Part shown: one piece after another, positions 8,520 through 64,000 of the stretch
Position numbering within the stretch: position 1 is the stretch's first letter
Layout of the letters: every line of letters begins with the position of its first letter
Assembly: GCA_951406725.2 (NCBI GenBank)
Contig: OX597835.1
Span: 27,714,001-27,778,000, forward strand
Reading direction: 5' to 3'
Source: Octopus vulgaris
Taxonomy: Eukaryota
Length of the DNA: 64,000 nucleotides
Translations under genes and position numbers: made by a program
Notes under the pieces: model-generated
Told to the model about the DNA's origin: nothing
The model's database searches: none
Seen by the model: only the letters and a program-made list of their open reading frames with translations

Positions 8520-8790
8520 TACCAAGGGCGAAGCAGAAAAGAAGAAGTTTGCTAATATCCAGTGACATGAGGATCAAAGAACTGATATATTTCGGATCGC
8601 AAGACAGTATGTGAGAGAAAATTATGTCACAGGTGAGAAATGTGTCAGCATGGATGATGGTGCACTTGCATTTAATGATTTGGAAAAGAAAGAGGCTTCG
8701 AGAAGCTATTATGAAAGACTGCTGAATGTAGAGAATGAATGGGAGGAGGAGAGCCTGCCAAATGTTGATACAGTAGAGGGACCAGTGGTT
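8520..8790 (+). mobile_element. RTE LINE ORF fragment homologous to 56740-56990
   Basis: YYERLLNVENEWEEESLPNVDTVEGP aligns by eye with YYVRLLSVENEWDKGSLPHVNPTEE. Confidence 0.75.
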
Positions 8791-8990
8791 CAATTTACAC
8801 AGAGGTTGATCCCACATTTTATCCTTTTAGGGGTCAATGAAATGAGTACCAGTTGAGCACTGGGGTCGATGTAATCAATTTGTTCCCTTCCCAAAAATTT
8901 CAGATCTTGTGCCTATAGTAGAAACAATTATTATTATTGAGTGAGAGAGCAGCACATGCCATCAAAGTGACATGGGAGTACAAATATATA

Positions 8991-10407: not shown

Positions 10408-12132
10408 CTGGAAAAGCAAACCTTCCACAGATCAATAATGGACAACTAAATTGTCTATTGGTGTTCAATCTATAAACAGAATGATTTTAGAAAGCTTTCC
10501 CCCTCTGCCGTGACACAAAAAGTATCATATAATTATATCAGCTCCTATCAATATGTTGTGGTTTGGTTTTTTTTTTTTTATTAACTATCCTAATTTATTT
10601 GATTTATAATTTAATAATTCCGAAATTTAAAAAAAAACAATTTCGTTATTTCCAAACTTTAAAAAATAAATTTTTTCAAACACATTTTCAAGTTAAAAGC
10701 TTAAAATAACTAATTTATCTATTTACTCATTTATGTTTTTATTTCTTACATTTGAAGATACATATAGATTGTGTATTTTATCTTTTTTTTAATTTTTTCT
10801 TCCAAAAAAATTATTTTTACATTTGAGAATATTCAATTTATTTCTTTGTTAAATTCATAAAGAAACTGAGCAATGCAAAAAATTTTAAATTAGGAAAGAA
10901 AAAAAAAACATGTCTAATGGCTCATGTAAAAGTAAGTGAATTTTTCTAAAAACTTAATTTGACAGCCAAAAGACATAGCATATTTAATCACATATTCTAA
11001 GTTCATAGAGTGCTTATGAATGTGACAGATAACAGACTGAAAACACTATATTTGTGATTTTGAGTCAGCAAATATATCTTTATAATCTTTTAATGTTTTT
11101 AGCTTGGAGAAGCAAAAAAAGAAAAAGAGAAAATGAAAAAAGATTAAAAGCTAAGCATTTAGATCATTATATATATATGTTTACATCTACAATTAAAAGA
11201 TAAATCATGTGTTCCTTTTCTAAAAGACAATTAAACCACAGAAATGAAAGAAAGAAAAATATAGCAAAATGAATTTTTTTTTTTTTCTGCTTTCGAATGT
11301 TTGTAAACCAAGGAATGCATGTAGTCATAAACTAGCAATAAACCATGTCAAATAACTGATTCTGTGCACTCATCAAATGTCACACAGCATTTAAACTACC
11401 AAATTTTCGAGCAAACAAGTCAAATTGTGTAGACCAAAATATACAGCCAAACAAATGGCAGGTCAATTTAAACACCAAGACAACTCTGGAAGACCAAAAG
11501 TTCCATGTGCAATGCAGCAAGCAGGATTTCAAACGACGGTGATAAAGTCTGAATGCTTACATAACATGTTTTACACTAAATACTACATTAACTTGTATGC
11601 TAGAGAATATGGCAGGAAATATGGATATGTTCCATTAAATTCAAAACTGCAGTTAATTTGGTAAATTTAAACAAGCTTGAGTTTTAAATGCATATTAAAA
11701 GCATTACATCACACGTAAGGCATGTGCTTAAATCAGCCAAAATTGTAAACAAAAATAATTTTCGCAAAGAATTTCTAAAACATGCAACAACACAACAAAT
11801 GGCCAAGCTAGTTGGTTGAGTTAAAAACCAGAACTCAAGGATTTTGGTGGCGCTATGTGAAACAGTGAAGTTTGAGTAGTTTGGATTAAGTTTGTGTAGC
11901 ATGGCAAGAAGAGGAATCTGTTATTTTAAGACAAATGATTTATATGGCGGAGAAATTCTTTTACAGAACAAGGTCAATTCACAAACATTTGTATCTTCTT
12001 CTTCCCAGATCTCACAACCATTTCCAAACCCATGAACTTCCTTTTATAATTGGTCAAGTGCTTATTTAAAATTATCTTATAACAGTTATCGGGTGTTTAT
12101 TAATGTTGAATATATAAATATACATATTTACA

Positions 12133-17290: not shown

Positions 17291-17336
17291 ACTGGGAGTA
17301 AGTCTGTCTTCTTTGTTGATCTTGTATCGAATCATA
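17291..17336 (-). CDS. internal coding exon (46 nt), YDSIQDQQRRQTYSQ
   Basis: Branch point and acceptor ctctaattttattttcgcag|TAT, with a consensus donor |gtaagt. The phase-0 start matches the end of exon 22104-22183 and the frame is open. Confidence 0.8.
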
Positions 17337-22103: not shown

Positions 22104-22183
22104 CTGATTAAGCTCTTGGTCCATAATGGAATTAAGGACATCAAGCTTGCTTTGCAGCTCAGCAGCTTCAACTTCGGGAAGAT
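22104..22183 (-). CDS. internal coding exon (80 nt), (D)LPEVEAAELQSKLDVLNSIMDQELNQ; amphipathic/coiled-coil-like, protein unidentified
   Basis: Acceptor ttgtaatatttctag|AT and donor CAG|gtattt. A GC-richer island in AT-rich flanks; phase 1 in, phase 0 out. Confidence 0.8.
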
Positions 22184-22688
22184 CTAGAAATATTACAAAT
22201 ATTTTCACATTATTAATAATAATAATTATAACAATAACAATAATAATAATCGAACAAACACTTCCGCACATAATACAATAATGGTAATGTTCTTAACTGT
22301 TATATGGGAATGTAAATATGATTGCAAATTGTTTTCATTACATGTTATTCTGTGTTCTGAATACTTTTATTTTAATAAATGTTGCTTACTGCAAGTTATG
22401 GATGATTCTTTTATGACTTCATTGCTTTTAGGCTTAGCTTAATGTATTTTCGTGCCCGACATCACAAAATGCGTCTGAATAAACATTGCCGGACAGCAAA
22501 TAGAGACTTAGACATTGCTTAGAAAATATTTTTCCTTTTTAACCTCGTATATAGTATGCACTAGGGATTTTGACCTTTAAATTTTTGGAAGAAAATGCAG
22601 ATTATACTCGAGGATTTACAGTATCTCTGCTGATCATCCACGTTTTTTATTATTACTGAAATATCGACAAACAACATACGCTATCATG

Positions 22689-30936: not shown

Positions 30937-30945
30937 CTTCATAAC
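30937..30945 (-). CDS. 9-nt micro-exon GTTATGAAG, (G)YE
   Basis: ctaatgac branch region, long polypyrimidine tract, ctacag| acceptor and consensus AAG|gtaagt donor. Symmetric phase 1. Confidence 0.8.
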
Positions 30946-34809: not shown

Positions 34810-34824
34810 CTTCCCAGTTCCTGG
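34810..34824 (-). CDS. 15-nt micro-exon CCAGGAACTGGGAAG, (A)RNWE
   Basis: About 35-nt polypyrimidine tract, cctcag| acceptor and GAAG|gtattt donor. Paralog of 44839-44853. Confidence 0.75.
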
Positions 34825-35699
34825 CTGAGGATGAAAAGAAAAAGAAAAGAAAAAAAGAAAAAATCACAGTCATAATAGTAATTGAAGGAGACGTTTTGAA
34901 ATTTAAATAGGAAATAATTGTTATTGGTGAGAATGTGAAAAAACAAAAAAAAGAATGAGAGATCAGGGTGTGGGTGGGCGGATTAAGCCAATTATTGTAA
35001 TCAAAGGCAATGTAGGAAAAAGAAAAAAAGATAAAAGACACAGAGGAAGGACAAAGCTTAGAAAATAGGAAAAAAAAAAAAAATACAATAAAAAAGAAAC
35101 GGGGAAAAACAATTGACTTTTTCTTCATAAATTACAGAGATATATTAAAGTTATAAATTTAGTAACAATATTTCATAGACCAACAAATAGTAAGAAAAGT
35201 AATCGATATATTTTTTTTTTATTATTTGTGGCAGTTCTTTTTCTCTGTTTTTCTTTCTTATTTTTTTTTGTTGGTTTTTTTTTCGGTTTTAATGTCTTCT
35301 GCAGATAAAGAAAGAATCGTGTGGGGAGGGGGGGGGGAAAGTAAAAAGAAAAGAAAATTAAAAAATAAAAACAAAATTTTTTTTTCCTGCAATTCAACAA
35401 TTCTGATTCTCAGCGCAGTAAATGGCTCTAGGTTTTTATCAAGGAACAAAATCTTAAGCAAACATCATACGAGTGGCCCTGACAATGATGACAACAACAA
35501 CAACAACAACAACTATAACAACAGCAATAACAATAACGATCTTGTCTTTTTAGTGCCACAAGGGAGGTGGCTGGGAGTGGGAGGATGAACATTAGGAAGA
35601 GAGAGATATGAAGAAGTGGGGGGAGTGAGGTGAGGGGTTTACACAGAAATAGGATGAAAGAAAGAAAGAAAGAAAGAAAAAAATTAAATCAAACTTGAG

Positions 35700-36420
35700 A
35701 GAGGGGGGATGAGTGGAGGGGTGAGAGAGGGGGAAAGGAGAGATGGGAGAGAGGGAGACAGGAGAGACGGGAGAGGAAGACAGGAGAGACGGGAGGGGGA
35801 GAAGGAGAGATGGGAGAGAGGGAGACAGGAGAGACGGGAGACAGGAGAGATGGGAGAGGGAGAGACGGGAGAGAGGGAGACAGGAGACAGGAGAGAGGGA
35901 GACAGGAGAGACGGGAGAGACGGGAGACAGGAGAGACGGGAGGGGGAGACAGGAGAGATGGGGGAGAGGGATACAGGAGAGACGGGAGGGGGAGACAGGA
36001 GAGATGGGAGAGAGGGAGACAGGAGAGACGGGAGAGGGAGACAGGAGAGATGGGGGAGAGGGATACAGGAGAGACGGGAGGGGGAGACAGGAGAGATGGG
36101 AGAGAGGGAGACAGGAGAGACGGGAGAGAGGGAGACAGAAGAGATGGGAGAGAGGGAGACAGGAGAGACAGGAGAGAGGGGAAAGATGGCAAGAGGGGAG
36201 AGGAAGGATGGGAGAAGGGAGAGGGGGAGGAGAAGGGGAGAAGGGAGAGAAGGGGAGAAGGGAGAGAGGGTGAGTGGGGTATAGGAAAGGGGAGAGAGGG
36301 GAGGGAAGAGAGAGACAGAGGGGAGAGGGCATGGAGAGGAGAGGAGAGAGAGAGGGTGTAGATGGGAGAGGGGGAGAGGAGAGAGAGGGAGGGAGAGGAA
36401 AGAGAAAAGGGGAATGTAAA
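35700..36420. repeat. polypurine/polypyrimidine minisatellite (~22-24-bp units, GGGAGACAGGAGAGA(C/T)GGGAGA)
   Basis: Direct inspection; the plus strand is almost purely purine. Confidence 0.9.
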
Positions 36421-38785
36421 AATGTAGAGTGCCAGACAGCTTGATTCATCTAGAGGGGTAAACAGAGAGACAGAGAGATACACAAATACACAGATAGATG
36501 TATATGTAAGTATATATGTGTGTGTGTGGAGAGAGAGAGAGGGGGAGGGAGAGAGGGAGGGAGAGAGAGAGGGGGTCGGTAGATTACCAGAGAGATAGAT
36601 TCATCTAGATAGACAGATAGATCAACAGATAGAAAGAGATCAAATAGGGTGACAGATAAGCTGATTAATAGATAAACCGAGGCAGAGGGATACATAGATA
36701 CATAGATGTATACGTATGTGTGTGTGTATGTGTGTATGTGCTGGTAACGTGTAACCGAGAACAACCTGTTGCATGGTTGGGCCATCAGCTTGCTAGATAA
36801 GGAGGGTGGTTTTCATTAGACATCTTGGAGAATGTGTAATGCAACCTATCAAAACGGCAGATGTCATTTCTAGAATCAATCATCATCCAACAGCTGGGAG
36901 TGAGGGTCGCCTGGTCTTTGTTTAGACATCTCTGTTAGAGAAGGAAAACTCTTCTCTTAACACCTGTGACTTTGTTCACATCCAGTGACAAAGACTAGTT
37001 TTTCTTTCTTGGGTTTACATTAACGAGTGGAATAATCCCGGTGCAAGGCCTTTCCTAACTTTAAAAAAGCTTCAGGCACAAAAATCGTTTGATTTTTATC
37101 ATCTCCATTTTATGCTAGCATACAATGGACAAAAAACTAAAATAAAATGCAGTAAAATATTCCATGACAGAATGAAGGCATGTGTCAGTGTGAGTGTTTA
37201 GTTCTCTGAACACCTGCTGCAAGAGGTGCCCATCGCTGCCACATCATCATCATCATGTTGGCATGGGCTGGACAGTTTGACAGGAGCAGGCAACCCACAG
37301 GGCTGCACCAGCTTTTGGTATAGTTTCTATGACTGAGGGGCTCTTCCTAACACCAACCACTTTACAGAGTACATTGGGTGCTTTAATGTGGAACCAGCAC
37401 TGATGCATTTTACACAGCACTAGCACAAGTGCTTTTATATGGTATCGGCATGGTATGGGTGCCTTTTACATAGTGGCAGTAAGGGTGCTGTTTACATGGT
37501 GCCAGCAAAAGTATTGTTTGAATTTTATCCTCTTCATTACGTATTGCAAATTATGGTTGACCATAAACAAAAAAATGCACAACATTCAGTAAAACAGTCC
37601 ATGACAGAATGAAGACACGTGTCAATGAAGGTGTCAAGTTCTCTGAATATCAGCTGCAAGAGGTGCCCATCACTTCCACATCTGTGTGAACAAGTGTAGG
37701 TCTCTAGCAGGATTGAAAAGCCAATCCTTACTGCTCCTGTTCAAGAGAACAGTCGAGCACTGGCATTGCTCAAAATTGAGTTGCAGCCATCATATGCATG
37801 TATGAGAGGGTGTGTGAATAAGCAAAGTAAAGGTAATGCTGACATTCCTTGTTAGTAGTCAGGAAGGAAGGCAGAACCCATAACTTATGACAGGGCCTCA
37901 GGGGTTAGTGGGAAGGAAAGAGGAAAGTATCCTCAATCTGGAAGCTTGGCCTGGATAACTGCAACAGAGCAGGGTCCGCTACTGGTACCCCAGCTGCCTG
38001 ATTGGTGGTGTTAAATCTGACGAGAGATTAAGTCAACTACTAAAGTGGTCCATGGTAGGATTTGAACTCAGAGTGTAAAGAACTGGAACAAATACATTCA
38101 AGACATCCAATTTGATTTTCTTACAGTTCTGCTAATCCACAGTTCTAGATTGGAACTTTCTTACTGAGCCCAAAGGAATAAAACGTGAAGATAACCTAGG
38201 TAGGATTTGAACTCAGAATGCAAAGATCCAGGACAAATACTGCAAGGCAGTAGATCTGATGTTCTTATAGACCTGCGGATCGACTGCTTTGGAGGTTTAG
38301 ATTTTTCTGTTTTTATTATCACTGACCAGCTCTATGCTCTTGGAAAAGCCCACCAGTGAAATATAAAAACCCTTCATCTGAAAAACAGGTGAGGGTTTGC
38401 GACAGGGAGAGCACCACACTGTAAAAGCATGGCTCTGAATCAGAGAAATCAATTCCTATTCAAGTTAAGCTAACATGGAAAAATGGGCGTTAAATGAAAA
38501 AACGAAGGAACAAATGAACTTAGAAATTATTCAGGATTTATGATGGACTTTACATTATAAAACAAACCACACATTGTATTGTATTGGACGGGATATACAT
38601 TTGTTTATCGATAAGGAATTAATGTGATCTTTGCTTTTGTTAATTTTTTCTTTGCTTGTGTTTATTGCCTGACAGAACAATCATAAATATATCAGTGAGC
38701 GAGGGTAGGTTTTTCTATACGGTCGTTCAATACGCTAGAGATAGCAGCTAAACTAAATATCTTTCATCATACTTATACTTATACT

Positions 38786-38816
<31 letters not shown>

Positions 38817-39143
38817 GGGGGTGGAGTAATATCAGAAAATGTGATCCTAGATAACCCCAAAATAGGATCGAATGTTAATGATTGGATGGGGTTTTCATCG
38901 TCGGACTGCTTGATCAGAGACGACCCGGGGTTAAGCAACAACTACAACAGCCATAAATATTACGCAAAGTAGGACAACCGATGAAGCAATAAATTTAATT
39001 CAACAATATATCACCAGATTATGGCTGTCATTATGTTGCAAAACAGAACAATATACATGATATATGCCATCATAAGTCTATTTGTCTGTGTGCATGTATA
39101 TACATACATACATATGTATATATATACATGTATATATAGATAC

Positions 39144-39182
<39 letters not shown>

Positions 39183-39235
39183 CGTATATATGTATATATA
39201 TATATATATATATACATACATACAAATATATACTC

Positions 39236-39266
<31 letters not shown>

Positions 39267-39547
39267 CACATATATATATATACATACACACACACACATA
39301 TATATATACATACATACACACACATATATATATACACACATACACACACATATATATATATATATACACACATACACACATATATATATACACACATACA
39401 CACATATATATATACATACATACCCACACATATATATATACACACATACACACATATATATACACATAAATACATTACATGCACATACACATATATATAC
39501 ATACATATATATATATACATACATACCTATATATATATATATATGCA

Positions 39548-39593
<46 letters not shown>

Positions 39594-39627
39594 CATGTAT
39601 ATATATATACATGTATATATATATATG

Positions 39628-39672
<45 letters not shown>

Positions 39673-40145
39673 TTGGACATTTATTTGTTTATCATATAAA
39701 CATACACATATATACACACATGTGTGTGTAAATACAGATATGTATATGCAAATTTATAAATACATACACACACACACACATACATGTATGTGTGTGTATG
39801 TGTCTATGTGCATGCTTGCATGCATGTGTATGCGTATCACTTACACTGCCCTCTCCTCTATCACCCTCTAATCTCAGCTCTCCTTCCTTCAACACTTTCT
39901 TCTAACATCCTATTGATCATATAATGTCATGGGTTTGATTTCTGAGCAGAGTGGGGCAAGACAGAGCAGGGGGAGGGCAGGGCATGGCAGGGCAGGATAG
40001 GGTAGTACTTTGTGTCCTTGAGCAAGGCACTTCATTCTACATTGTTGCAATTTGACAAAAGTGAAATACAGAATTGTTGATTTCAATTGACAAAACAAAA
40101 GAGTTAAATTCAAACGAGTAAACTGAAATATGTAAACATTATTTA

Positions 40146-40292
40146 CATTATTTACATTTGACGGATATTTGTCCTCATCTTGTTTGTTGTTAACACAATG
40201 TTTTGGCTGATATACCCTCCAGCCTTCTTCAGGTGTCTTGCGGAAATTTCAAACCTGGGTTCTCATTCCTAAGGTATTTTTCAATGTTGTTG

Positions 40293-40338
<46 letters not shown>

Positions 40339-40594
40339 AGTCACTGCTTGGAATTGAACTCGGAATTTTGGGTTTAGTAGCCCGCATTCTTCACCACTAT
40401 ATCATATGTCCATGGGCATATGGCATAGTATATGCCATGTGGCATAAGATAATAATAATATTATTAATAACATTGAAAAATACTTTAGGAATGAGAACCC
40501 AGGACACCTGATGAAGGTTGGAGGGTATATCAACCAAAACGTTGAGCTAACAACACACAAGATGAGGACAAATATCCGTCAAATGTAAATAATG
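40146..40594. mobile_element. Penelope-like inverted repeat pair with hammerhead-like relic
   Basis: 40146-40288 is the reverse complement of 40469-40594 with one indel. CTGATGA at 40508-40514 is followed by a stem and AAAAC. Confidence 0.65.
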
Positions 40595-41411
40595 CATATA
40601 ATTCCTCATCTCATAAATATAGAACTGTAATATGTAAACAAGCTTTTCAATTAACAAAACAGAAATATTGCCTTCATTTCATAATACAGAAATACATATT
40701 TTAATTAAAATATTGACTCACACAAGCCCAGTAATGCTTCTTACATTTTAAAATTCACCACAGGAAACAAAACTACTGCTGTGAGAATCATTATTTTAAT
40801 ATATAAATGTTCACCCTTTATACTTTAAGTAGTGGAGTAATTTACCTAAAAATATGATTTTTAATCCTGATTATTAAATGGAAAAATATTAAACAAAACA
40901 AAACAGAAATGTTGCCTGCAATTGCGAAGTAAAAAAAAAACTGAAGAAATTGTAACAATAACCAATGTTAATATTGGGAAACTAAAATGATTACATCAGG
41001 ATAACTTAACAAACACACATAAATCTTTATAGAAAATCGGTCTAATATAAAACTTGTGAAAGGCTTTCCATGCGAAATAATTAAATATTCTTCTGAGCAT
41101 ACCTATAAAATGAATTAATGCAAAAAGGACCATTAACTATTATGACAGATAGCCATTTAATGTGACCAAATTAGTTAGCAGGAATATGTGCAGTGCTGTC
41201 AGTTCCTTGTGAGGCTTCTAATAATGTCTGCTGCAGATAGCAACCAAGATACTAAAACCAAGATACTAGAAATCCTTCTCTTCTAACATGATTCCAACCA
41301 TATTGGACATTCTCTTGGGGGTTCATAAGTTTCCAATACTCAATATATATATATATAAAGCTAGACATGGCCTGAACCAATCTTTGGTCGAAATATATCT
41401 AAGTTCATCTA

Positions 41412-41459
<48 letters not shown>

Positions 41460-41516
41460 TACATATGCACACATACACACATATATATATACACACACAT
41501 ACACATATATATCTGT

Positions 41517-41559
<43 letters not shown>

Positions 41560-43567
41560 TATATATACACACACACACACACACACTGAAATTAACTGAT
41601 AATGGCTTTTCCCTTTGATTAGCCTTTAAGTGTAGCAACAGGAAAAGCAACTGGAGTTTGCAAATATGTTTACGATGATGATGCTATCATTCAACAGCAC
41701 TTCACTTACGGCTCCTCTGCAGACACAGAGTTGCATCATAGCTTAACCTATTACATATTTACATATTTATCAGTTGCTTTCAACTGGTTGAAATCAATGA
41801 GAGCTTCTTATTGAATGCTCTTTGGAGAATATTGTTGGTTATACAACGTTATTACAGGCAATAACCCTCAACACTCTTACTATTTTGTACTAATTATACG
41901 AAGCAAAAAAAAAAACAGAGGAAATATTTCATATTTTATTACAAGATTTTATACTTTAAATGTATTGAAATATATCACATGATATACATAAAAAAAGTAA
42001 TAAAACATAATTTGCTTGCATTGCAGTTTTTTTTTATCTGTTCATTCATTCATTTTCTTCATATAATCTATAGTTGTTCCAATTGACTATTTTACTTGAT
42101 ATAAAAACGATATACGGAGAAAAGCCAAGTCACATTGAAATTGTTTTGGTTTTCTTCAAAAAAAGAAATAAAAACAACCAAAACAAGGACAAAATAAAAA
42201 TGCTTTCTTTTACATTTCAATAGAGAATTTGATGTAAAACACACACAAAGAATGAAAGAAAGAAAAATCATTCCTGCAGGCCTTAAGATATTTAAATTTT
42301 GTTTTCTTAAGAATCTGTAGTATTTGCATAACTTTGCTAAATCTCATTTTCCAAATATACTTTATAAATCATAGCTAGTGTTTTCTTAAGATTATCCTGT
42401 TTAATATCAGACAAAAAAGACAAAAAAAAGGAAAAAAAAGAAAGAAATATTATTTTGGAAGTTGTTAATAATATAAAGAGATTTTTAAAGGGTGACATTT
42501 TTAACATTTTTTCCATAATTTTATATACATAGTATTTGTCACAAGAAGTGTTTCAAAAGGTATGTTTTAATAATATGAAAACCAATTTCACTGGTTTGAA
42601 AATATCAGTAATTTGTAAATAACATCAGAAATTAAAGCCACATTATTATGCAACAGCCAATTTTTCAACGTTGCTGCCAAGTTATTGACAAAAATACATG
42701 TTGCTCACTAAACAGATTGTTTTTCAATCAATATATCATAAAAATTGATCAGAATTGATATAGCCATTAAACAAGTGTACTTGTTTATTACTCAAGCAAT
42801 ATTATTTTATGCTAATATTGCTTTAATAGTGCTTATAGCTTTTGAAACACGATACCATTGTCAAACATATCAACAAACCCACTGCAAAGATAAAGCCATG
42901 CTACAAATTATTAACCAACCATTACTCCAACTATAAACAAAGCACAATAATAGCATATGATAATTAATACATATTCCTTCATAGGATCAGCTCAGTTTTC
43001 TTCTAACGAACACTAAATTGTTCTAAAACAATTCTAATTTCTGGACAATATACAACTCTAATGGCTAAGGTGAATTGAGAAAAGGAGAAAAGAGGTTTCA
43101 GTTTTTTGTTTCTTTTTTAATGTTTTTTTTTTAATTGCATTTTTTTTTTAATGATAATGTACTAAAGATTTTAAATGCATGATTAAGATCAACAAAATCT
43201 TCAAATTTAACAAAACCCAGCAATGGAACTCTCAGATTTTGTTTTTGAAAGCTTAACAAAAAAATTTCATTCTGGTATGATATGAATATGTGTGTATATA
43301 TCTATATATATATATATATATATATACAGACACATGTATAGATACATATACATACATATATATATATATGTATATACATATACTCACACACACACACATA
43401 TGTATAGATACATATACATACATATATATATATATGTATATACATATACTCACACACACACACATATGTATAGATACATATACATACATATATATATATA
43501 AATATATACATATACATACATATATATAAATATATGCATATACATACATATATATAAATATATGCAT

Positions 43568-43606
<39 letters not shown>

Positions 43607-43811
43607 TATACATAAACATACATATATATATATAGATATATACATAAACATACATATATATGGCGTTAGGAAGGGCATCCAGCTGTAGAAACTTTGCCAG
43701 ATAAGACCGGAGCCTGGTGCTGCCTTCTGGCTTCCCAGATCCCCGGTCGAACCGTCCAACCCATGCTAGCATGGAGAACGGACGTTAAACGATGATGATG
43801 ATGATGATGAT

Positions 43812-43853
<42 letters not shown>

Positions 43854-43861
43854 ATATATAT

Positions 43862-43897
<36 letters not shown>

Positions 43898-44838
43898 GCA
43901 TATATGTATAGGTATATGTACTTATACAGATAAATACATAGACAACAAAAATATGCGTTTTTCTGCTTAGTTGTAACACATCAACATTGCATCATGTCTT
44001 TGTACTGACACATCTGTAATATATATGTCACAGTTATTTTCGATCATGACAGCAGAAAAATGAAATGGAAAAGAAAATAATTGCAAATGGATTGTCATCC
44101 GAAACTGAATACACAAAAGAGAATAAAAATCACTTGTGTCAATTTCAAACAATTAAATAGTCGTTTGTTCGCGTTATTAAAGTTACATGCTTCTGCAACG
44201 GTAACATTTCCAAATCACATCACAACAAATTGCCCTTCCATGAAGTCAATTGTAAAAGAAGAACATTATTTGCCAGATTGATGAGGGCAGGTGATTATAC
44301 ACTGTCTATGGAGAAATTTAAACTTCTTGTTGATAGTTTAAAAAAATGTACACTCCATGGCCTGGCACTTGACCGGTTACTTGACAAGCGTTCCAGTTGG
44401 TGCGATCAACGGAATGACCTGCTCGTGAAATTAACTTGCGAGTGGCCGAGCGCTGCCATATAAACATGCAAATGGCCAAGCAGTGCCATATAAGGCAACA
44501 AGGCAACATGTTTAATTAAAATATGTTACTGGTAACGTTAATAGAAATGATCCTATTGATTTCTCTGTTTCTCAATTGTTCTGCTTACATAAGTAAACTG
44601 ACTACTTTGTACATCTAAAAAGCAAATTTCAATTCTTGTTCTACAAACAATTTAAAAGCTGATACTATCAAAGGCTACCATTTTTTTTTCTTTTATTATT
44701 TTTTTTTTTTATAATATCAACCAGACGTTTCAACAAGTTAGCCCAAGCTATCCATTGATTGGTACCGAGTCCCATACCAATGTGCAAGTACATCATAAAA
44801 TACAACAAGATATTTATAAAGAACAAAATAATAAATAC

Positions 44839-44853
44839 CTTCCCAATTTCTGG
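44839..44853 (-). CDS. 15-nt micro-exon CCAGAAATTGGGAAG, (A)RNWE
   Basis: ttgttttctttttccctag| acceptor and GAAG|gtattt donor. Differs from 34810-34824 only at two synonymous third positions. Confidence 0.75.
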
Positions 44854-48920: not shown

Positions 48921-49320
48921 TATATTTGACTTTTGCTTTATATTTGTACAAGTTGGCTCCAAGTCTCACCCAGAGACCTCAAGAGACAACAGATTGGAAG
49001 TTCATGTTGTTGTTATGCCTAGTGTGCCATATATTTGGTTGTTTGTTTTTGGATGTCTAAAAAAAAAAAATTATGTTTGTTTTAAACCTTAAGATCACAA
49101 AGAAAGTATTTTGCGTAGGATATGAGCAGTTCCCATAAGCACTATCTTTTGAATTTCTGCCATTTTGGGGTTTCCTGGTATCTGAGTTAGGTAGCAATCA
49201 GCCCCTTTTGCTATCATTCCCAGGGCACCTATGACAACAGGTATTGTTTTAGTCTTCAGGTTCCACATTTTGCTGATTTCTATTTCAAGATCTTTCAAGA
49301 TCTTTCAATATTTTTCTATC
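48918..49320 (-). mobile_element. 3' end of R4/Dong-like non-LTR element (restriction-like endonuclease C-terminus)
   Basis: KDLEIEISKMWNLKTKTIPVVIGALGMI...IQKIVLMGTAHILRKILSL* plus 3' UTR, between (TAA)n tracts. Confidence 0.75.
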
Positions 49321-51096: not shown

Positions 51097-51263
51097 AAGA
51101 AAGAAAAGGAAAAAAATTTCAAATTTACTTGAGTGATTTGGATTGTTAGGAACGAAATGCATTAAATAGTTGATAGCATTGGAAAAGACCAGGGATGTGC
51201 AGTGCAAGCTGCAGGAAGATGAGAATGAGAACTAGGTGAAATACTTGCTGAACACTTGTCATG

Positions 51264-54518: not shown

Positions 54519-54530
54519 CTTCCCAATCAG
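54519..54530 (-). CDS. 12-nt micro-exon CTGATTGGGAAG, (A)DWE
   Basis: Long polypyrimidine tract whose first downstream AG is tcgaaag|. Donor GAAG|gtatttata is shared with the ARNWE exons. Confidence 0.7.
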
Positions 54531-55217
54531 CTTTCGAGTTGAAGAAGAAAGGAAAAAAAAGAGAAAGGAAAAAATTCAATATACATTAATTACATATCAC
54601 CTGTAATAAAATTAATTTAAAAACAAAACTGTCTTCGGTTGTACAAGTTTTCGAGTTTTCGTTTTAAATAAGTTTTCGAAATAAAATTCCAGAAACTTCA
54701 AACATTCTTTTGTTATTTTTGTTTTCTTTTTTTGTCTCTTGATCGTGCAGTTATGTCACGAAACATAGACTTTAATTAAGATACGTGTGCGTAATATATA
54801 TATATATAAATGTATGTGTATATGTATTTTGGTACATAAAATGTATGCACATGCATGTATACACACATGTATATATTATATACATATTTATATATATATA
54901 CATGTGTACATTTTATACATATGTATGCATATATGTGTGTGTGTGTGTGCATATGTGTATGCATGTGTGTATATGTATGTATTAATGTGTGTGTGTGTAC
55001 AAAGAAAGACAGATTTCAATTAGAAACATTAAAAAATATTATATATTACTACTATAGATAATATCATGATACAGACACAATTTGTGTGTGTGTGTGTGTG
55101 TTCTTTATTTTTTAAATCAATAAAATTTAGGAATCACATTTGAAGATTTTGATAAACATGGTTTCTTTAATAATAGAACTCAATATGTCCTATGAGGTAA
55201 TGTTATACATTTCGCCT

Positions 55218-55261
<44 letters not shown>

Positions 55262-56699
55262 GCGTGCATATATATGTATATATATATATATGCATTTAAA
55301 AAGTAAAAATAAAAAGTTTTTAAATATGGTAAAAACTAAAAGTAAAAAAAAACCTCAAATATTCCTGTGAAAATATGATATAATCATTAACCATTGATTT
55401 CTGGTTAAAAAAAAAAAAAAAAAGAATGGCAATTAGCCAAAATAGTCTGAATTTAAAACAAAATTAAATATGATTTTTAAAAATTATTGCATGCTTGCTT
55501 GTACTAAGAATCAGTTGGATGTCTTTGAAAGTTCAGACATTTACATAAATTCCTGTAGCCAAGTGATTTAGTCAGTCGAATGTTGTTCTTAACAACCAAA
55601 ACACTCGTCATGAAAGATGTTAATTTTAAGAAAGTTGACCCCCACCACACAGTAAACAAAATGTTGACAGTAAAAGACTTAAGAATTTTACATCATCATC
55701 ATCATCATCATTTAACGTCTGTTTTCCATGCTTGTACAGGTTGGACAGTTTGACTGAGGTCTGGAGAGTCAACAGCAGCACCAAGCTCCAATTTGATCTG
55801 GCAATGTTTCTACAGCTGGATGCCCATTCTAATGCCAACCACTCCAACAGTGTAGTGGCTGTTTTTTACATGCTACCAGCACAGGAGCCAGTCAGGCGGG
55901 CCTGGCATTGATCACATTCAGATAGTGCTTTTTATGTGCCACTGGCATGGGGACCAGTCAGGGGGTACTGGCATTGCTCATGTTTGGAAAGTGCTTTTTA
56001 CGTGCCACTGGCATGGGGGTCAGTCAGGGAGTATTGGCATTGGCCACATTTGGATGGTGCTTTCTATATGCCACTGGCATGAGATTAGGTCAGTGGGTAC
56101 TGGTATTGGCCACATTTGGATGGTGCCTTTTATATGCCTCTGGCACAGGAGCCAGTCAACCAGAACTGGCATCAACCATGCTCAGATGGCGCTTTTTATG
56201 TGCCAGTGAATGCAATTATCTATCTACATGTGTATGTATGTGTGTGTATGTGTGTGTGTGAGTGTGTGTGTGTGTGTGTGTGTATGTGTGTGTGTGCGCA
56301 GGTGTTTGTTAAACTAGTACATTTTCTTTTACTTGTTTCAGTCATTTGACTGCAGCCATGCTGGAGCACTGCCTTTAGTCAAGCAAATCAACCCTAGCAC
56401 TTATTCTTTGTAAGCCTAGTACATATTCCATTTGTCTCTTTTGCAAAACTGCTTAGTTACAGGGATGTAAACACACTAGCATCGGTTGTCAAGTGATGTT
56501 GGGGTGCTACAAACACAGACACACAAACATATACACATATACTGAGGGCAGCAGACCAAATCTATGGTTGGAGCAAAGCCTCTGCCAGACCAAGGGTGAT
56601 GTGGTAGTGAAACAGTGACACTGACAGGGCTATAATAGAGAAGAGACGGGCTAGAAAGAGTGGGAACGAGGAGGTAGTAGGAAAGAGTCATATCAGAAG

Positions 56700-58200
56700 G
56701 CAAAAAAGAAGGCTAGATATCAGTCTTATCTAGCTGGGATAAAAAGCGAAAAAGAAGAGGTTTGCCAATGTCCTACAACATGAAGATCAGAGACTTGAAG
56801 TGTTCCAGACTGCTAGATAGTTCGTCACTGAGAACCAAGATATTGCAGGAGAGAAATGTGTGTGGATGGATAATAGGATGCTTACACTTAGTGATGTGGA
56901 CAAGAAAGAGACCAGGAAAAATTACTATGTGAGACTGTTGAGTGTAGAGAATGAATGGGATAAAGGGAGTCTCCCCCATGTGAACCCAACAGAAGAACTG
57001 GCTATCCTAGTGGATAGCAGTAAGGTAGATAAGACAATTAAAAACACGAAAAGCAGGAAAGCCCCTGGGCCATCCAGAATCACAGCTGAGATGCTCAGAA
57101 TATCCAGTAAGGTAGGATACAAGTGAGTCACCTGCATAATTAATCATTAATCACGTCATTCAGGAAGGTGTAATACCCAGTGACTGGCACAGGAGCATAA
57201 TTGTTAGCTGCTACAAAGGTAAGGGCAATGCTTTAGAGAGAAACAGTTATAGAGGCATCAAACTCCTGGACCAGGTGATGAAAATTATGGAGAGCGTTAT
57301 AGCCCAATTAATTAGGAGGAGAATTAGGCTAAACAAAATGCAGTTCAGCTTCATCTGGGGAAGAAGCACTACTAATGCTATTTTCATAGTCAGACAACTG
57401 CAAGAGAAGTACTTAGCTAAGTATAAACCATTATATTTGGCATTTGTTAATCTAGAGCAGTGGTTACCAAAGTGGGCACTATTGCACCCCTTGGGGTGGT
57501 GGAAAGTTCCAAGGGGGCGTTGATAATGGGGTGGTGATTATAATGGGGACAATAATGGGATGGTGATTCATGTAAAAACAACAAAATAATGGGTTCATTA
57601 AGTTATATTTGTGAAATACTGATGCTTTGAATTTGCTTCAGAAGTGGGGGTGCTTGAATGTGGTCTGGATGTCAAGGGGTGGCAACCCGAAAACGTTTGG
57701 AAACCACTGATCTAGAGGAAGCCTTCAATAGAGTGCCCTACCATGTGGTATGGCGGGCTTTGAGGAGGCGAGGGATAGACAAGTGGCTGGTGAAAGTTGT
57801 ACAGGCTCTGTACAAAGATGCTGTCAGTAAGGTGAGAGTTATCCACAAGTACAGTGAAGAATTTAATATACAGGTAGGGGTTCATCAAGGCTCAGTCCTT
57901 AGTCCCTTCCTTTTTATCATTATCCTGCAGGCCATAACAGAGGAATTCAAGACAGGTAGCCCCTGGGAACTACTATATGCTGATGATTGTGCCTTCATAG
58001 CAGATTCCATATCAGAGCTAAAAGAGAAATTTTAGGCGAGGAAGCAAAACCTGAAATCTAAGGGCCTTAAGGTTAACTAAGCAAAGATTCTGGTCCTAAT
58101 ATGCAAGAAAACAGACAGGATCCTACCCCAGTCAGGTAGGTGACCCTATTTGATTTGTTGGAAAGGTGTGAGCAGGAATTCTATAAGGTGTACCCAATAC
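56700..58200 (+). pseudogene. decayed RTE-clade LINE reverse transcriptase
   Basis: KAPGPSRITAEML, GRSTTNAIFIVRQLQEKY, LAFVNLE/EAFNRVP, GVHQGSVLSP and LLYADD motifs, with stops and frameshifts. Confidence 0.9.
57458..57709. mobile_element. hAT (Charlie-like) MITE inserted in the RTE ORF
   Basis: TIRs CAGTGGTTACCAAA / TTTGGAAACCACTG. 8-bp TSD ATCTAGAG at 57450-57457 and 57710-57717, matching the NTCTAGAN target. Confidence 0.9.
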
Positions 58201-58648
58201 TCACATGTGTGTGTATGTGCATTCTTTTATTCTCTTACTTATCTCAATCATTGGACTGTGGCCATGCAGGAGCACAACCTTGAATGATTTTAGTCAAATT
58301 AATTGACCACAGTACCTATTTATTTTTTAAACCTAATACTTATTCTATTAGTACCTTTTGGTGAACTGCTAGGTTACAGGGACATAAACCAACTCCAGCT
58401 GTCAAGTGGTAGCAGGGATAAACACAAACACATACACATTTATATGACAGCCTTCTTTCAGTTTCCATCTACCAAATCCCCTAACAAGGCTTTGGTCATC
58501 CTAGAAGACACTTGCCCAAAGTGCCAAAAACTTCTTATCACATAGCCATGCCTGCACAAAGGATGTAAACATCAGTGAGGAAAGCCAATAAAATGGTGTT
58601 GCTGTGATATTGATTCTGCACCAGGTTACAAACACTCCCTTGTCATAC

Positions 58649-58654
58649 TTAGTG
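58649..58654 (-). CDS. candidate 6-nt micro-exon CACTAA
   Basis: ttgactgca + T-run + ag|CACTAA|gtatga. Frame-neutral in phase 1. Could be chance. Confidence 0.3.
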   Translation of the reverse strand, partial: H

Positions 58655-59108
58655 CTAAAAAAAAAAAATGCAGTCAACTGGTTTCAACTAATGTTCACCA
58701 TTTGTGATCTAAAAGAACCAAATCAGTAAACTGCTAATTGTAACAGTATATGCCTCGTTACTAATGTGTCTCTGCATATACAGTTCTTACTCAGTTTTCT
58801 TCCTTTTTACTTTTATTTTATTTTTCACAGTTTCACAAAAAAAACCCAAAAAAACAGAAGTATCAAAAAAATCTCTAGAATTCATTAGCAAAATTTTGAC
58901 CTTAATTACACTTTCTAAATTAATTAAGGACAAGTAAAAAGCCAAAATACATAAAGCTCACATCTATTAGGTGTATCGCATTACTCCTAAATAAAGTAAC
59001 AATAAATAGAAAGAAATTAATGGTTATAATATCAATTAGCAATAGCAATTAGTAATATCAGTAATATAACAATCCTTAACAGCACATAACACTTAAATAT
59101 TGCAATAA

Positions 59109-59153
<45 letters not shown>

Positions 59154-59733
59154 TACACATATATATATTAGAAGAAAGACCATAAAAAAAGTAATGTAAT
59201 TCTCAAAATGTTATTTTGTTTTTATGCAAGAATTTACCAATAGGGAATATTAAGTTGAGACTTACACTTTCATTTACCTAATTATTTTAATTGAAAAGCA
59301 ATAAAAACTAACATGGATGGATGGATGGACGGACGGACAGACAGACAGACGAAATAGTCAAATCAAATCCGATTTCTGGAGCATTCATATCCACCAGTCT
59401 TTCCTAGCCCATTACATAAATGGTTTGCCTTTGCCAACATAAAGTGAACCCACTTTTTATGTATCTTTAGATGGACTAGTCCATTTTTAGCCATTTGGTA
59501 TTTGGATCTACATGTCTGCTGTAATGCTTTTATTATTCACATTGTTTTTGAATTAATTGTGTGTTATCTCTTAGCTTCAAGATTTCAATGATATGATTGG
59601 TTATTTTTAGAATGACAATGTAGGATGGGTGTAAGAGGCTGGATCAGACCAGTTTAAACATAAAACAGGCAAAGTACTTGAGATGGATAGGGCCAGTTTA
59701 AATGCAAAAGGGTGGAAGAATTACATTGTCATA

Positions 59734-59892
59734 GCCACTGACATGACACAGTGTTGTAACCAAGATATGTGCCACTGACATGACACAGTGTTGTAACCAA
59801 GATATGTGCCACTGACATGACACAGTGTTGTAACTAAGATATGTGCCACTGAAATGACTCAGTGTTGTAACCAAGATATTTGCCGCTGACAT
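59734..59892. repeat. 37-bp tandem repeat, ~4.3 copies
   Basis: GCCACTGACATGACACAGTGTTGTAACCAAGATATGT starting at 59734, 59771, 59808, 59845 and 59882. Confidence 0.95.
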
Positions 59893-61224
59893 CTTAGTTG
59901 GATGTCCTCAACTGTATCCATTATGTCAGCAGCCATCAAGCTTATTTTGGCATGGAAACCCATTTTACCATTTTCCAAAAAACTGGTTTCAAATTTTGGC
60001 ACCAGGACAACAATTTCAGGGGAAGGAATAAGTCAATTACACTGACTCCAGTATGCAACTGGTACTTATTTTACCGACCCCAAAAGGATGAAATGCAAAG
60101 TAAACTTTGATGGAATTTGAACTCAGGGTTAAACGCTGCTAAGCATTTCACCTTGTGGGCTAACGATTCTGCAAGCTTACCACCTGAATATAACAAATTT
60201 ATAATTATTAATGTCAATGCTCAAACACACCCAACTATATGAATTTTTTTTAAATGAGACAAAAAAAAAAGCATGACTTTCTCAAAATATTTTTCATTTT
60301 GTGCTAAAATTTGCAGATATGGGATTTTTATTGTTTAAATTAAAAACAAAAATAAAAAAAAACTAAGTTCGTTTACCCTTTGATCTTGCTAATTATTTTA
60401 ATTGCAAAGAGGTTAAGAGCCAATATAAAAATACAATAAAATGCTTTTTGTTGTTACTGTTGTTGTTTTTGGTTCCAGTTTAGTCATGATCAAACAGACC
60501 AAGCAGAAAATACATTCCATTTATGACCATCCTGACATATCATATTTTCAGGCAAAGTGTAACTTGAACTACATTGCCAAAAATCTCTTTTCTCTTTTGA
60601 AGATGGTAAGGCATCATTTAAAGGAGATTTAGCTGCTATTTCTTGCAGGTTGAATGACCAACCATACAGAGGTTCCCTGAGTGGCAATAAGATGCAGTCA
60701 TATTTTGATTTAATCAAATATTATAACATTCAATATTAACTGAACATTCATCATCATCATCATTTTAACATCCACTTTTCCATGCTGGCATGGGTTGGAC
60801 AGAATTTGCTAAGGTGGTTTTTTTCTATGGCCAACTGTTTTCCATGGAAAATTGGAAACGTAGAACAGAGCTTACATGAGGGTGACACTCATGTACAGCA
60901 ACTGTCACATGATATCAGGCCAAAGAGATAGTAATATACACACATAGCCATTTGTATACATCATCATCATTTAATGTACATTATCCATGCTGGCATGGGC
61001 TGGACGGTTTGACCGGAGCTGGTAAGCTGAGGGGCTGCACCAGACTCCAGTCTGATTTGGCATGGTTTCTACAGCTGGATGTACTTCCTAATGCCAACCA
61101 TTCTAAGAGTGCAATGGCTGCTTGTGTGTGCCACTGGCATGGGTGTCACTTGTGTGACACCAGTTTTTCCATGTTTTAGTCATTTGACTGTGACCCTGCT
61201 GGAGCACTGTACAGTGAAATTTCT

Positions 61225-61292
<68 letters not shown>

Positions 61293-61680
61293 TATACACA
61301 GTGACTGGCTATGGAGGTCCAGTAGAATAAAATAGGAACAAAAGGAGTTCGTAGACAAAACATCATTGAGACCGACTACTTTGGACTACGTTGATAAAAC
61401 TACTTGCCAAGGAAGCTGCACATTAGAACCAAATGCATAACCATGCAACCATGCACGAATGCTTCTTGTGTTGACATTTAAACTATGCAAAATTTTATAG
61501 TTTTACAAACAGTGTTGTTATGTGAGGAGAGAGCTCCGACTGAATACACAAACTATCAAATGGTTTGACTGGAAGTGTTGATATACTTTCAGAGCTAACA
61601 TATAAACAATCTACTGAATAAATATCGAATGTAGCAAGTTTACACAAGTAGTAGGATAAATATCTTTCTTTTTTTACATA

Positions 61681-61728
<48 letters not shown>

Positions 61729-61803
61729 CATACATATATATAACTTTACACATATATATATATATACACTTACATACACACATAGATGTACATAGATATA
61801 CAT

Positions 61804-61850
<47 letters not shown>

Positions 61851-61964
61851 TACATACCAATGTATGCTAGTACATCCCTATATGTATGTGTATATAGATA
61901 TATATATACACACACACACACGTATATACCAATGTCTGCTAAAGCATCCCTATGTGTGTGTGTA

Positions 61965-62002
<38 letters not shown>

Positions 62003-62584
62003 TATATGTATATATATGTATATATATATATATATGTATATATATATACATATGCATATATATGTATATATATATATATACATATCCACACAGACACACA
62101 TATATATAAACACATACATACCAATGTATGCTAATACATTGATATATATATATATATATATGCATACATACACTCACACACACATACACACACACACACA
62201 CACACATGCATATATATGCACATTAAAGAGCTGCACACGAACATGAAAGTGTAAACTGTTAAAACCTGTTAAAAGGTATTGAGACAGATCTGGCAAAAAT
62301 ATGTAAGTTATGGTTTCTATGAAAGCCTTCAACGGCAACATTGGTCACTCGCATATCAAAAGAATATGTTGAAGCTGTATTCATTAGCTTCTCACATCAC
62401 AGCTCAGCAATCGTCAGGAGTTCTTTGACTGTCAAAAAAATATATTGTTCTGACTTCAATGTCATATACTTTGCCACGTCATTGCTACATTGTGCTTTTT
62501 TCCAGATATGAGTCACAGCTCAAATTCTCCGTACTGTTGACAGTTAACACTTCATTCTGAATTTTCATCTGGCAAATTAGGGCT

Positions 62585-62795
62585 TACTCTTTACTCTTTT
62601 CCTTGTTTCAGTCATTTGACTGCGGCCATGCTGGAGCACCACCTTTAGTCGAACAAATCGACCCCGGGACTTATTCTTCTGTAAGCCCAGTACTTATTCT
62701 ATCGGTCTCTTTTGCCGAACCGCTAAATGACGGCGACGTAAACACACCGGCATCGGTTGTCAAGCAATGCTAGGGGGACAAACACAGACACACAT

Positions 62796-62832
<37 letters not shown>

Positions 62833-62998
62833 TACGACAGGCTTCTTTCAGTTTCCGTCTACCAAATGCACTCACAAGGCTTTGGTCGGCCCAAGGCTAT
62901 AGTAGAAGACACTTGCGCAAGATGCCACGCAGTGGGACTGAACCCGGAACCATGTGGTTGGTAAGCAAGCTACTTACCACACAGCCACTCCTGCGCCT
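62585..62998 (-). mobile_element. full-length tRNA-derived SINE, family D, with internal microsatellite
   Basis: Minus-strand head GGAGTGGCTGTGTGGTAAG...GGGTTCAGTCCC. Decayed homologs at 3170-3330, 32228-32580, 50125-50270 and 58225-58555. Confidence 0.75.
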
Positions 62999-64000
62999 GT
63001 TTTGTTTTGTTTTGTTTTTTTTTTCTTTTTCTTTGTTAAAGACAAAATTCTCAATAAATGAACTTGGTCTTTCTCTAATCTCTTCTACATGGTTAAGTGG
63101 CTTTCATTGCTTTGCTGTCCTTTTAATTGCTTGCTGGGGCATGGACCTTGTAAACAAATCGACCCCAGGAAATATTTTTTCAAGTTTGGTACTTATTCAA
63201 ACGATCTCTTTTGCTAAATTGCTCCTGGTTGTGAAGTGGTGGAGGAACCCCACCCACAAACACACACACAAAACAGGATTCTTTCAGTTTTCATCAAACA
63301 AATCCGCTCAACTTGGGGCTATAGTTGAAGCCACTTGCCAAAGGCAGCAGGTAGTGGGGCTGAACCCAGAACCAAGTGGTCGGAAAGCAAACTTCTTACA
63401 AAATAGCTATGCCTGCACCTATAAACTTCTGTAAAGTTTATTTCAAAGAATCTAAGAATAATCTTGGTACCAAGCATACTGCTGACAGTCTGTGATGTTT
63501 ACATACATACATACAAGATGGACTCTCCTCTCAAAGACAATGACCAAGTGTTCAGCTTCTTGCTGAATGACCAGCACAAATGACTTGTTTATAATGACCA
63601 AATGTATATGCTGTACATTAGTTCACTCCTTCCATCAAATCAGCATTACCTGAACAGGTGCATGGTGTACCGCGGGTCAGGTATCAAAATGATCACAGAG
63701 CAATGTGAGATGAAGTGTTTTTCTCAAGAACACAACACACCACCTGGTCTTGCAATTGAAATCATGATCTCACAATAGTAACTGCAACACTCTAACCATT
63801 AAGTCATGAACCCTCACAAATAACATATATACATACATGCATACATACATACATACTTGCTGAGTTTCTTGATCAGTGTCCAAGTCTCAGACCCATACAA
63901 CACCACAGACTCCACTGCAGCAGTGAAGAGAGAGATCTTCAGGTTTTTACAAAGGTCTGACTTCCATACAGATCTCAAACTGTGGCATGGCATCCAGGCT

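Follow-up and report, generated by a model that had tools for sequence, protein, structure and literature searches.

Very small exons are known from the unc-13 genes of worms and mice. In Caenorhabditis elegans, a 9-nucleotide (nt) exon encoding VLK lies between the CaM and C1 domains; it is spliced according to neuron type and affects transmission (PMC12287369; here and below, articles are cited from excerpts). Mouse Unc13b has a 6-nt exon between exons 13 and 14 (PMC4387716). Here we describe six microexons in a single intron of the unc-13/Munc13 gene of Octopus vulgaris, in and around positions 27,714,001 to 27,778,000 of contig OX597835.1 (assembly GCA_951406725.2); this 64,000-nt stretch is referred to as the window. 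Like the worm and mouse exons, those of octopus are tiny, preserve the reading frame and fall in a regulatory linker of the same protein family. In contrast to the exons in the worm and mouse excerpts, which are single and lie at other positions, they form a six-exon array at the hinge joining the C2A domain to its following helix.

Duplicated exons of the Dscam type are mutually exclusive. In the octopus array, too, a neural gene carries homologous exons repeated in tandem, but the array is additive: all six copies are found in one protein. Avian fast troponin T has up to seven lineage-specific P exons with repeated acidic motifs; as in the octopus case, they are spliced in together and change how long a variable region is and what charge it carries (PMC7581897). 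The excerpt describes a muscle protein with His/Glu-rich repeats in a terminal region, whereas the octopus gene places aromatic-Glu units inside a two-pronged presynaptic binding interface.

We examined the window and its flanks (120 kb on the upstream side, 280 kb on the downstream side); positions above 64000 or below zero extend the window's numbering beyond its edges. The exons and intron described next all lie on the minus strand. The intron opens after the last C2A exon (85706-85829, or L005:1706-1829), which ends in RFELPY plus a G, in phase 1. Along the transcript follow m1 (GYE, 9 nt, 74278-74286, in L004), m2 (DWE, 9 nt, 67339-67347, in L003), m3 (ADWE, 12 nt, 54519-54530), m4 (ARNWE, 15 nt, 44839-44853), m5 (ARNWE, 15 nt, 34810-34824) and m6 (GYE, 9 nt, 30937-30945). 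Within the window, the intron upstream of m3 occupies 54531-64000 and runs past the edge. Each of the six falls within the 3-27 nt range of microexons, is flanked by AG and GT, preserves the frame and is in phase 1, and neighbors are separated by 3.9-12.8 kb. The 80-nt exon encoding the post-C2A helix comes next (22104-22183), then a 46-nt coding exon (17291-17336). Fully included, the array encodes up to 23 residues, 6 of them aromatic and 8 acidic.

How were such short exons recognized? P0001, a protein that is 253/255 identical to a cuttlefish protein, has an insert of six other residues at this site, and we therefore scored every symmetric phase-1 AG..GT segment between 3 and 60 nt long across the 63,522-nt intron. 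Five of the microexons ranked 1, 2, 3, 4 and 7 among the 2234 candidates, with the splice sites of m6 scoring highest in the intron. m3, which has a long pyrimidine tract and a weak AAG acceptor, scored low and was recovered by a filter for Trp. P0251, a deposited Octopus bimaculoides protein inspected only after the scan, contains all six units in genomic order. A 19-mer joining the W-exon to its donor occurs four times in the genome, every time inside this intron (control, 0). An 80-nt candidate exon at 51129-51208 and a candidate last exon at 11102 were rejected, being absent from every protein and contig examined.

The host gene is UNC-13/Munc13, in its C2A-containing isoform. Exon scans revealed C2A exons upstream of the array and the 80-nt exon downstream; the upstream exon had a single match among 11 candidates, P0001, which in turn matches the rat Munc13-1 C2A structure 2CJS with E=1.2e-52. 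Named unc-13 proteins were then retrieved. The exons match the deposited O. vulgaris model P0245, also at positions where O. bimaculoides differs, and the exons of P0251 map in and around the window. The C1 exon lies downstream on the same contig and strand as the C2A exons. The representative of the protein cluster carries PF00130, PF00168 and PF06292 (C1, C2B and MUN; the MUN domain is read from this representative). K32, E128 and E137, the residues of the homodimer/RIM switch, are all present in P0251, and P0001 has Asp at the equivalent of residue 137. A below-cut-off match of the 80-nt exon to the SARAH domain (Pfam PF11629, E=0.04) was rejected, the exon being the Unc13 post-C2A helix.

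The earlier note on this DNA had seen only m4 and m5, the twin ARNWE exons, and had not named the gene. Both are genuine coding microexons, bounded by an AG acceptor behind a pyrimidine tract and by a GT donor, and they are the fourth and fifth of six; the other four had been missed. The worry that their 15-mer might be a common genomic repeat did not materialize: it has two matches in the window even with two mismatches allowed (0.23 expected from shuffles), and the ARNWE pattern with its splice sites occurs twice in the 2.8-Gb genome, both times at this locus (control, 0). The proposed frame was correct: the upstream exon contributes a final G and leaves phase 1, so that the peptide reads A-R-N-W-E. 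Together with P0251 this rules out the alternative readings PEIGK/PGTGK and QKLG/QELG. Both differences between the copies are silent in this frame. Of the two, the A/G one could be imitated by A-to-I editing, which occurs in cephalopods, and the C/T one is the safer mark of each copy. Each copy also contains an internal CAG four bases in (44839-44849 and 34810-34820), use of which would shorten the exon to 11 nt and shift the frame (scored for m4, copy A).

The note had further supposed an old duplication kept by purifying selection, with introns that do not align. Beyond base +8, similarity is indeed not significant (p >= 0.07 in all 21 pairs of the seven microexons tested), so intron homology past the donor was rejected as proof of duplication; the first eight intron bases, GTATTTAT, are nevertheless identical. 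Dissimilar introns past +8 are consistent with old duplications. The silent differences also fit selection, with the modest support the note had warned of: 7/45 possible single changes in an ARNWE exon are silent, so that two silent out of two has p ~0.024, or 0.071 if only transitions are counted. The final three bases of these exons are probably constrained by splicing, not by the protein. As to the suggestion that copy number or separate regulation matters and sequence does not, the two copies are included together and so change the protein, but to call sequence irrelevant is too strong, because the units mix D-W-E, N-W-E and G-Y-E types while keeping an aromatic residue and Glu throughout. 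The ARNWE pair is kept in O. bimaculoides, with two units in P0251, and among the proteins and contigs examined we saw no isoform with exactly one.

Which exons are joined in transcripts? Of 16 cephalopod proteins surveyed, 11 lack this region and five are informative. Besides P0251 with all six units, the O. vulgaris models P0245 and P0247 have DWE and GYE only (m2 is present in both; m6 is in P0245), P0001 has GYE followed by DWE (probably m1 and m2) and the Argonauta protein P0246 has none. Contigs from four of 24 listed sequencing runs, RNA-like but of guessed type, were aligned on the helix exon; in all four they span that exon and not its flanking intron, and continue into the 46-nt exon. 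At the upstream ends of contigs from X1, X8 and X17 we read the end of a W-exon, m5 letter for letter, m6 and the helix exon. Junctions were read 30 letters deep, so the W-exon before m5 may be either m3 or m4. The X4 contig matches two bases past the helix exon, which fits the end of a microexon and not direct splicing.

Since P0251 holds all six units and X1, X8 and X17 include several together, the copies are additive, not mutually exclusive; one copy per transcript, the mark of a mutually exclusive cluster, is not what these four records contain. Gene models and contigs support the existence of several exon combinations. O. vulgaris models have DWE and GYE, and m5 is included in contigs of the organisms coded A and C. 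Exon choice probably varies within a single species, as judged from gene models and contigs, as opposed to read counts. In principle, the six exons give 64 subsets and, by computation, 47 distinct peptides of 0-23 residues.

The position of the insert suggests what it might do. Aligned to rat Munc13-1 in 2CJS, the gap opens directly after L131, where the C2A domain gives way to the helix with which it clamps the RIM zinc finger. In an AlphaFold model of P0001, for which 2CJS was the best fold match and 2CJT also matched, the insert (132-137) lies in a coil between a strand (109-128) and a helix (141-175), with a local pLDDT of 68. In the rat protein, an extended linker lets C2A and the helix bind opposite sides of the zinc finger, on which L131 packs (PMC1472246). 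The double mutation E128K and E137K abolishes RIM binding and impairs priming (PMC5436228); these two residues flank the insertion site.

On balance, by analogy with the rat complex, we favor the view that the array is combinatorially spliced and tunes the RIM clamp, and with it priming and release. The array would have grown by repeated duplication at the site of a single optional molluscan microexon. When all of it is spliced in, C2A and the following helix are separated by an extra 23 residues, rich in acidic and aromatic side chains. Stepwise lengthening and added negative charge could then shift the balance among homodimeric, MUN-inhibited and RIM-bound Unc13, probably by neuron type. By altering how tightly Unc13 holds the RIM zinc finger, combinatorial splicing would likely adjust vesicle priming and release probability.

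Several points weigh against this. The combinations were pieced together across species, in part from automated gene models, which are prone to missing microexons; annotation gaps could account for the empty Argonauta form and for the forms with two exons, or the cuttlefish may have just two. The contigs are also compatible with all six exons being always included, and their runs are RNA only by guess, though the exon is covered and the flanking intron is not. The 23/23 identity of the insert between two Octopus species is uninformative, as the proteins are 99.5% identical (1611/1619). Finally, of the linker side chains just one packs well against RIM (PMC1472246), and the linker may tolerate inserts without effect.

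This last point leads to a different explanation, which we consider rather unlikely: the exons would have multiplied in a flexible linker, with neurons including them mostly as one block, to little functional effect. The modest silent-site support speaks for it, as does the terminal GAAG, which is common to all eight microexons found in the gene (two of them in a different intron and phase); splice-site demands may explain part of the recurrence of Glu. Three observations argue against it. When units with the same peptide are compared, 4/4 differences are silent (two between m4 and m5, one between m1 and m6 and one in the shared part of m2 and m3), although these comparisons were picked after the peptides had been seen, and between D-type and N-type units the protein does change. 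Cuttlefish-like P0001 keeps GYE and DWE without change, beside an exon that is only 19/27 identical. And the splice sites have remained intact although the flanking introns are no longer similar.

Alternatively, the inserts might be short linear motifs for a new partner, with Trp or Tyr beside acidic residues in the manner of kinesin light chain ligands and copy number setting avidity. The density of aromatic and acidic residues in the full insert is suggestive, and aromatic plus Glu in every unit of the wider family would be needless for a pure spacer. Any included exon creates W/Y-E-D-L at the junction, which we take to resemble an LC3-interacting or tyrosine sorting motif. W-acidic motifs are defined as Trp flanked by Asp or Glu (PMC6214655), and m2 and m3 fit. 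In m4 and m5, however, Asn precedes Trp, only half a fit; the Y-acidic motifs in that excerpt are C-terminal; and the single insert of other molluscs has no such motif. We regard this explanation as unlikely. That the inserts act mainly on autoinhibition (the C2A homodimer or the C2A-MUN contact) and not on RIM affinity is quite improbable: C-terminal extensions of C2A raise homodimer affinity (PMC1472246) and C2A binds the MUN domain until relieved by RIM (bioRxiv 10.1101/2024.01.24.577102), but the homodimer interface is the concave C2A sheet, away from the insertion point (PMC1472246).

The view that the array grew at an optional molluscan site comes from predicted isoforms of other animals, for which we took up to 15 listed members per cluster (clusters of 14-157) and dropped those without C2A. 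A four-residue insert (DVVA, DIVA, DFVA or EAVA) is found at the array site in scallop (13/15), limpet (13/14), abalone (10/13), mussel (11/13) and apple snail (9/12), and each of these species also has insert-free models. Among the listed members it is absent from all 15 of oyster, all 7 of a freshwater pulmonate and all 14 of amphioxus; in Lingula, 13/14 have no insert and one has an extra Gly. No insert of the WE or YE type occurs among the 97 parsed sequences of 150 distant representatives (53 unparsed). The gastropod and bivalve insert shares with the octopus array its position in the protein and its optional use within species. It differs in being one four-residue unit, and homology to the cephalopod exons is not demonstrable from so few letters. 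The best reading of these sequences is an optional molluscan site that was expanded in coleoid cephalopods.

The other two of the eight microexons found in the gene encode VVK and VMK (9 nt, phase 0) and lie downstream of the window, on the minus strand, with first bases at G000:C22:27604089 and 27571766. They are in the CaM-C1 linker, at the position of the worm VLK exon, and are preceded by two more optional exons of ~30 nt; O. sinensis models have 0, 1 or 2 copies. Because these unrelated exons have GTATTTAT too, sharing it is no proof of duplication. The donor GAAG|GTATTTAT is found in 6/8 microexons (m2-m5, VVK and VMK) and in 0/11 ordinary exons with donors read in register (four more were off register and excluded). 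It is possibly a common splicing element, but it can serve only as a lead, as the six exons make just two duplicate families. Neural microexons that depend on eMIC/SRRM3-4 carry UGC a short distance before the 3' splice site (PMC8797185). None of the six array exons has TGC at -30 to -4, m2 having one only inside its acceptor, and we therefore do not class the array as of the eMIC type. AG exclusion zones are long in 6/6, the nearest upstream AG being 35-232 nt away, as measured within this array; pyrimidine tracts are present.

Other small exons are duplicated in the N-terminal linker (-16106 to -65026; L016-L021): two encode SCSN..DYN and two contain SPV..VSRQSTQDY, the first pair being absent from P0001. 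A partial duplicate of the end of a 277-nt exon lies ~130 bases downstream of it, at L016:7070-7144, with a possible acceptor and donor of its own; it was not found in the proteins inspected. Within introns of the window, reading frames at 8566-8853, 56821-58032 and 49098-49304 resemble decayed retrotransposon fragments. Just upstream of the helix exon, a high-depth repeat element (22271-22500) is covered by many short contigs.

The array is real and apparently undescribed. We found no published description of it in the literature, supplementary exon tables lying outside the search, and the full six-unit insert already stands in the deposited P0251, with no comment on it that we could find. 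A 2019 study of bilaterian microexons reportedly covered octopus and may list these exons. In the excerpted main text of PMC9282427 the word 'exon' is absent, and the excerpts of PMC11703226 and bioRxiv 10.64898/2026.09.05.749416 do not mention unc-13; the supplements of the first and of the preprint may list the exons.

Comparing synaptic scaffold genes of Aplysia, Octopus and vertebrates, PMC9282427 proposes that alternative transcripts of single genes, not expansion of gene families, may supply molluscan synaptic diversity. The unc-13 locus offers a tangible example, with an exon array particular to its lineage lying within the best-characterized regulatory switch of vesicle priming. Tentatively, coleoids may have turned a single optional microexon site into a multi-step dial within the Unc13-RIM clamp, one that would grade release probability and short-term plasticity for each neuron type and stand in for the gene-family expansion of vertebrates. 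If so, neuron types would obtain graded release from one unc-13 gene through subsets of its exons, and not, as in vertebrates, through extra copies of the gene.

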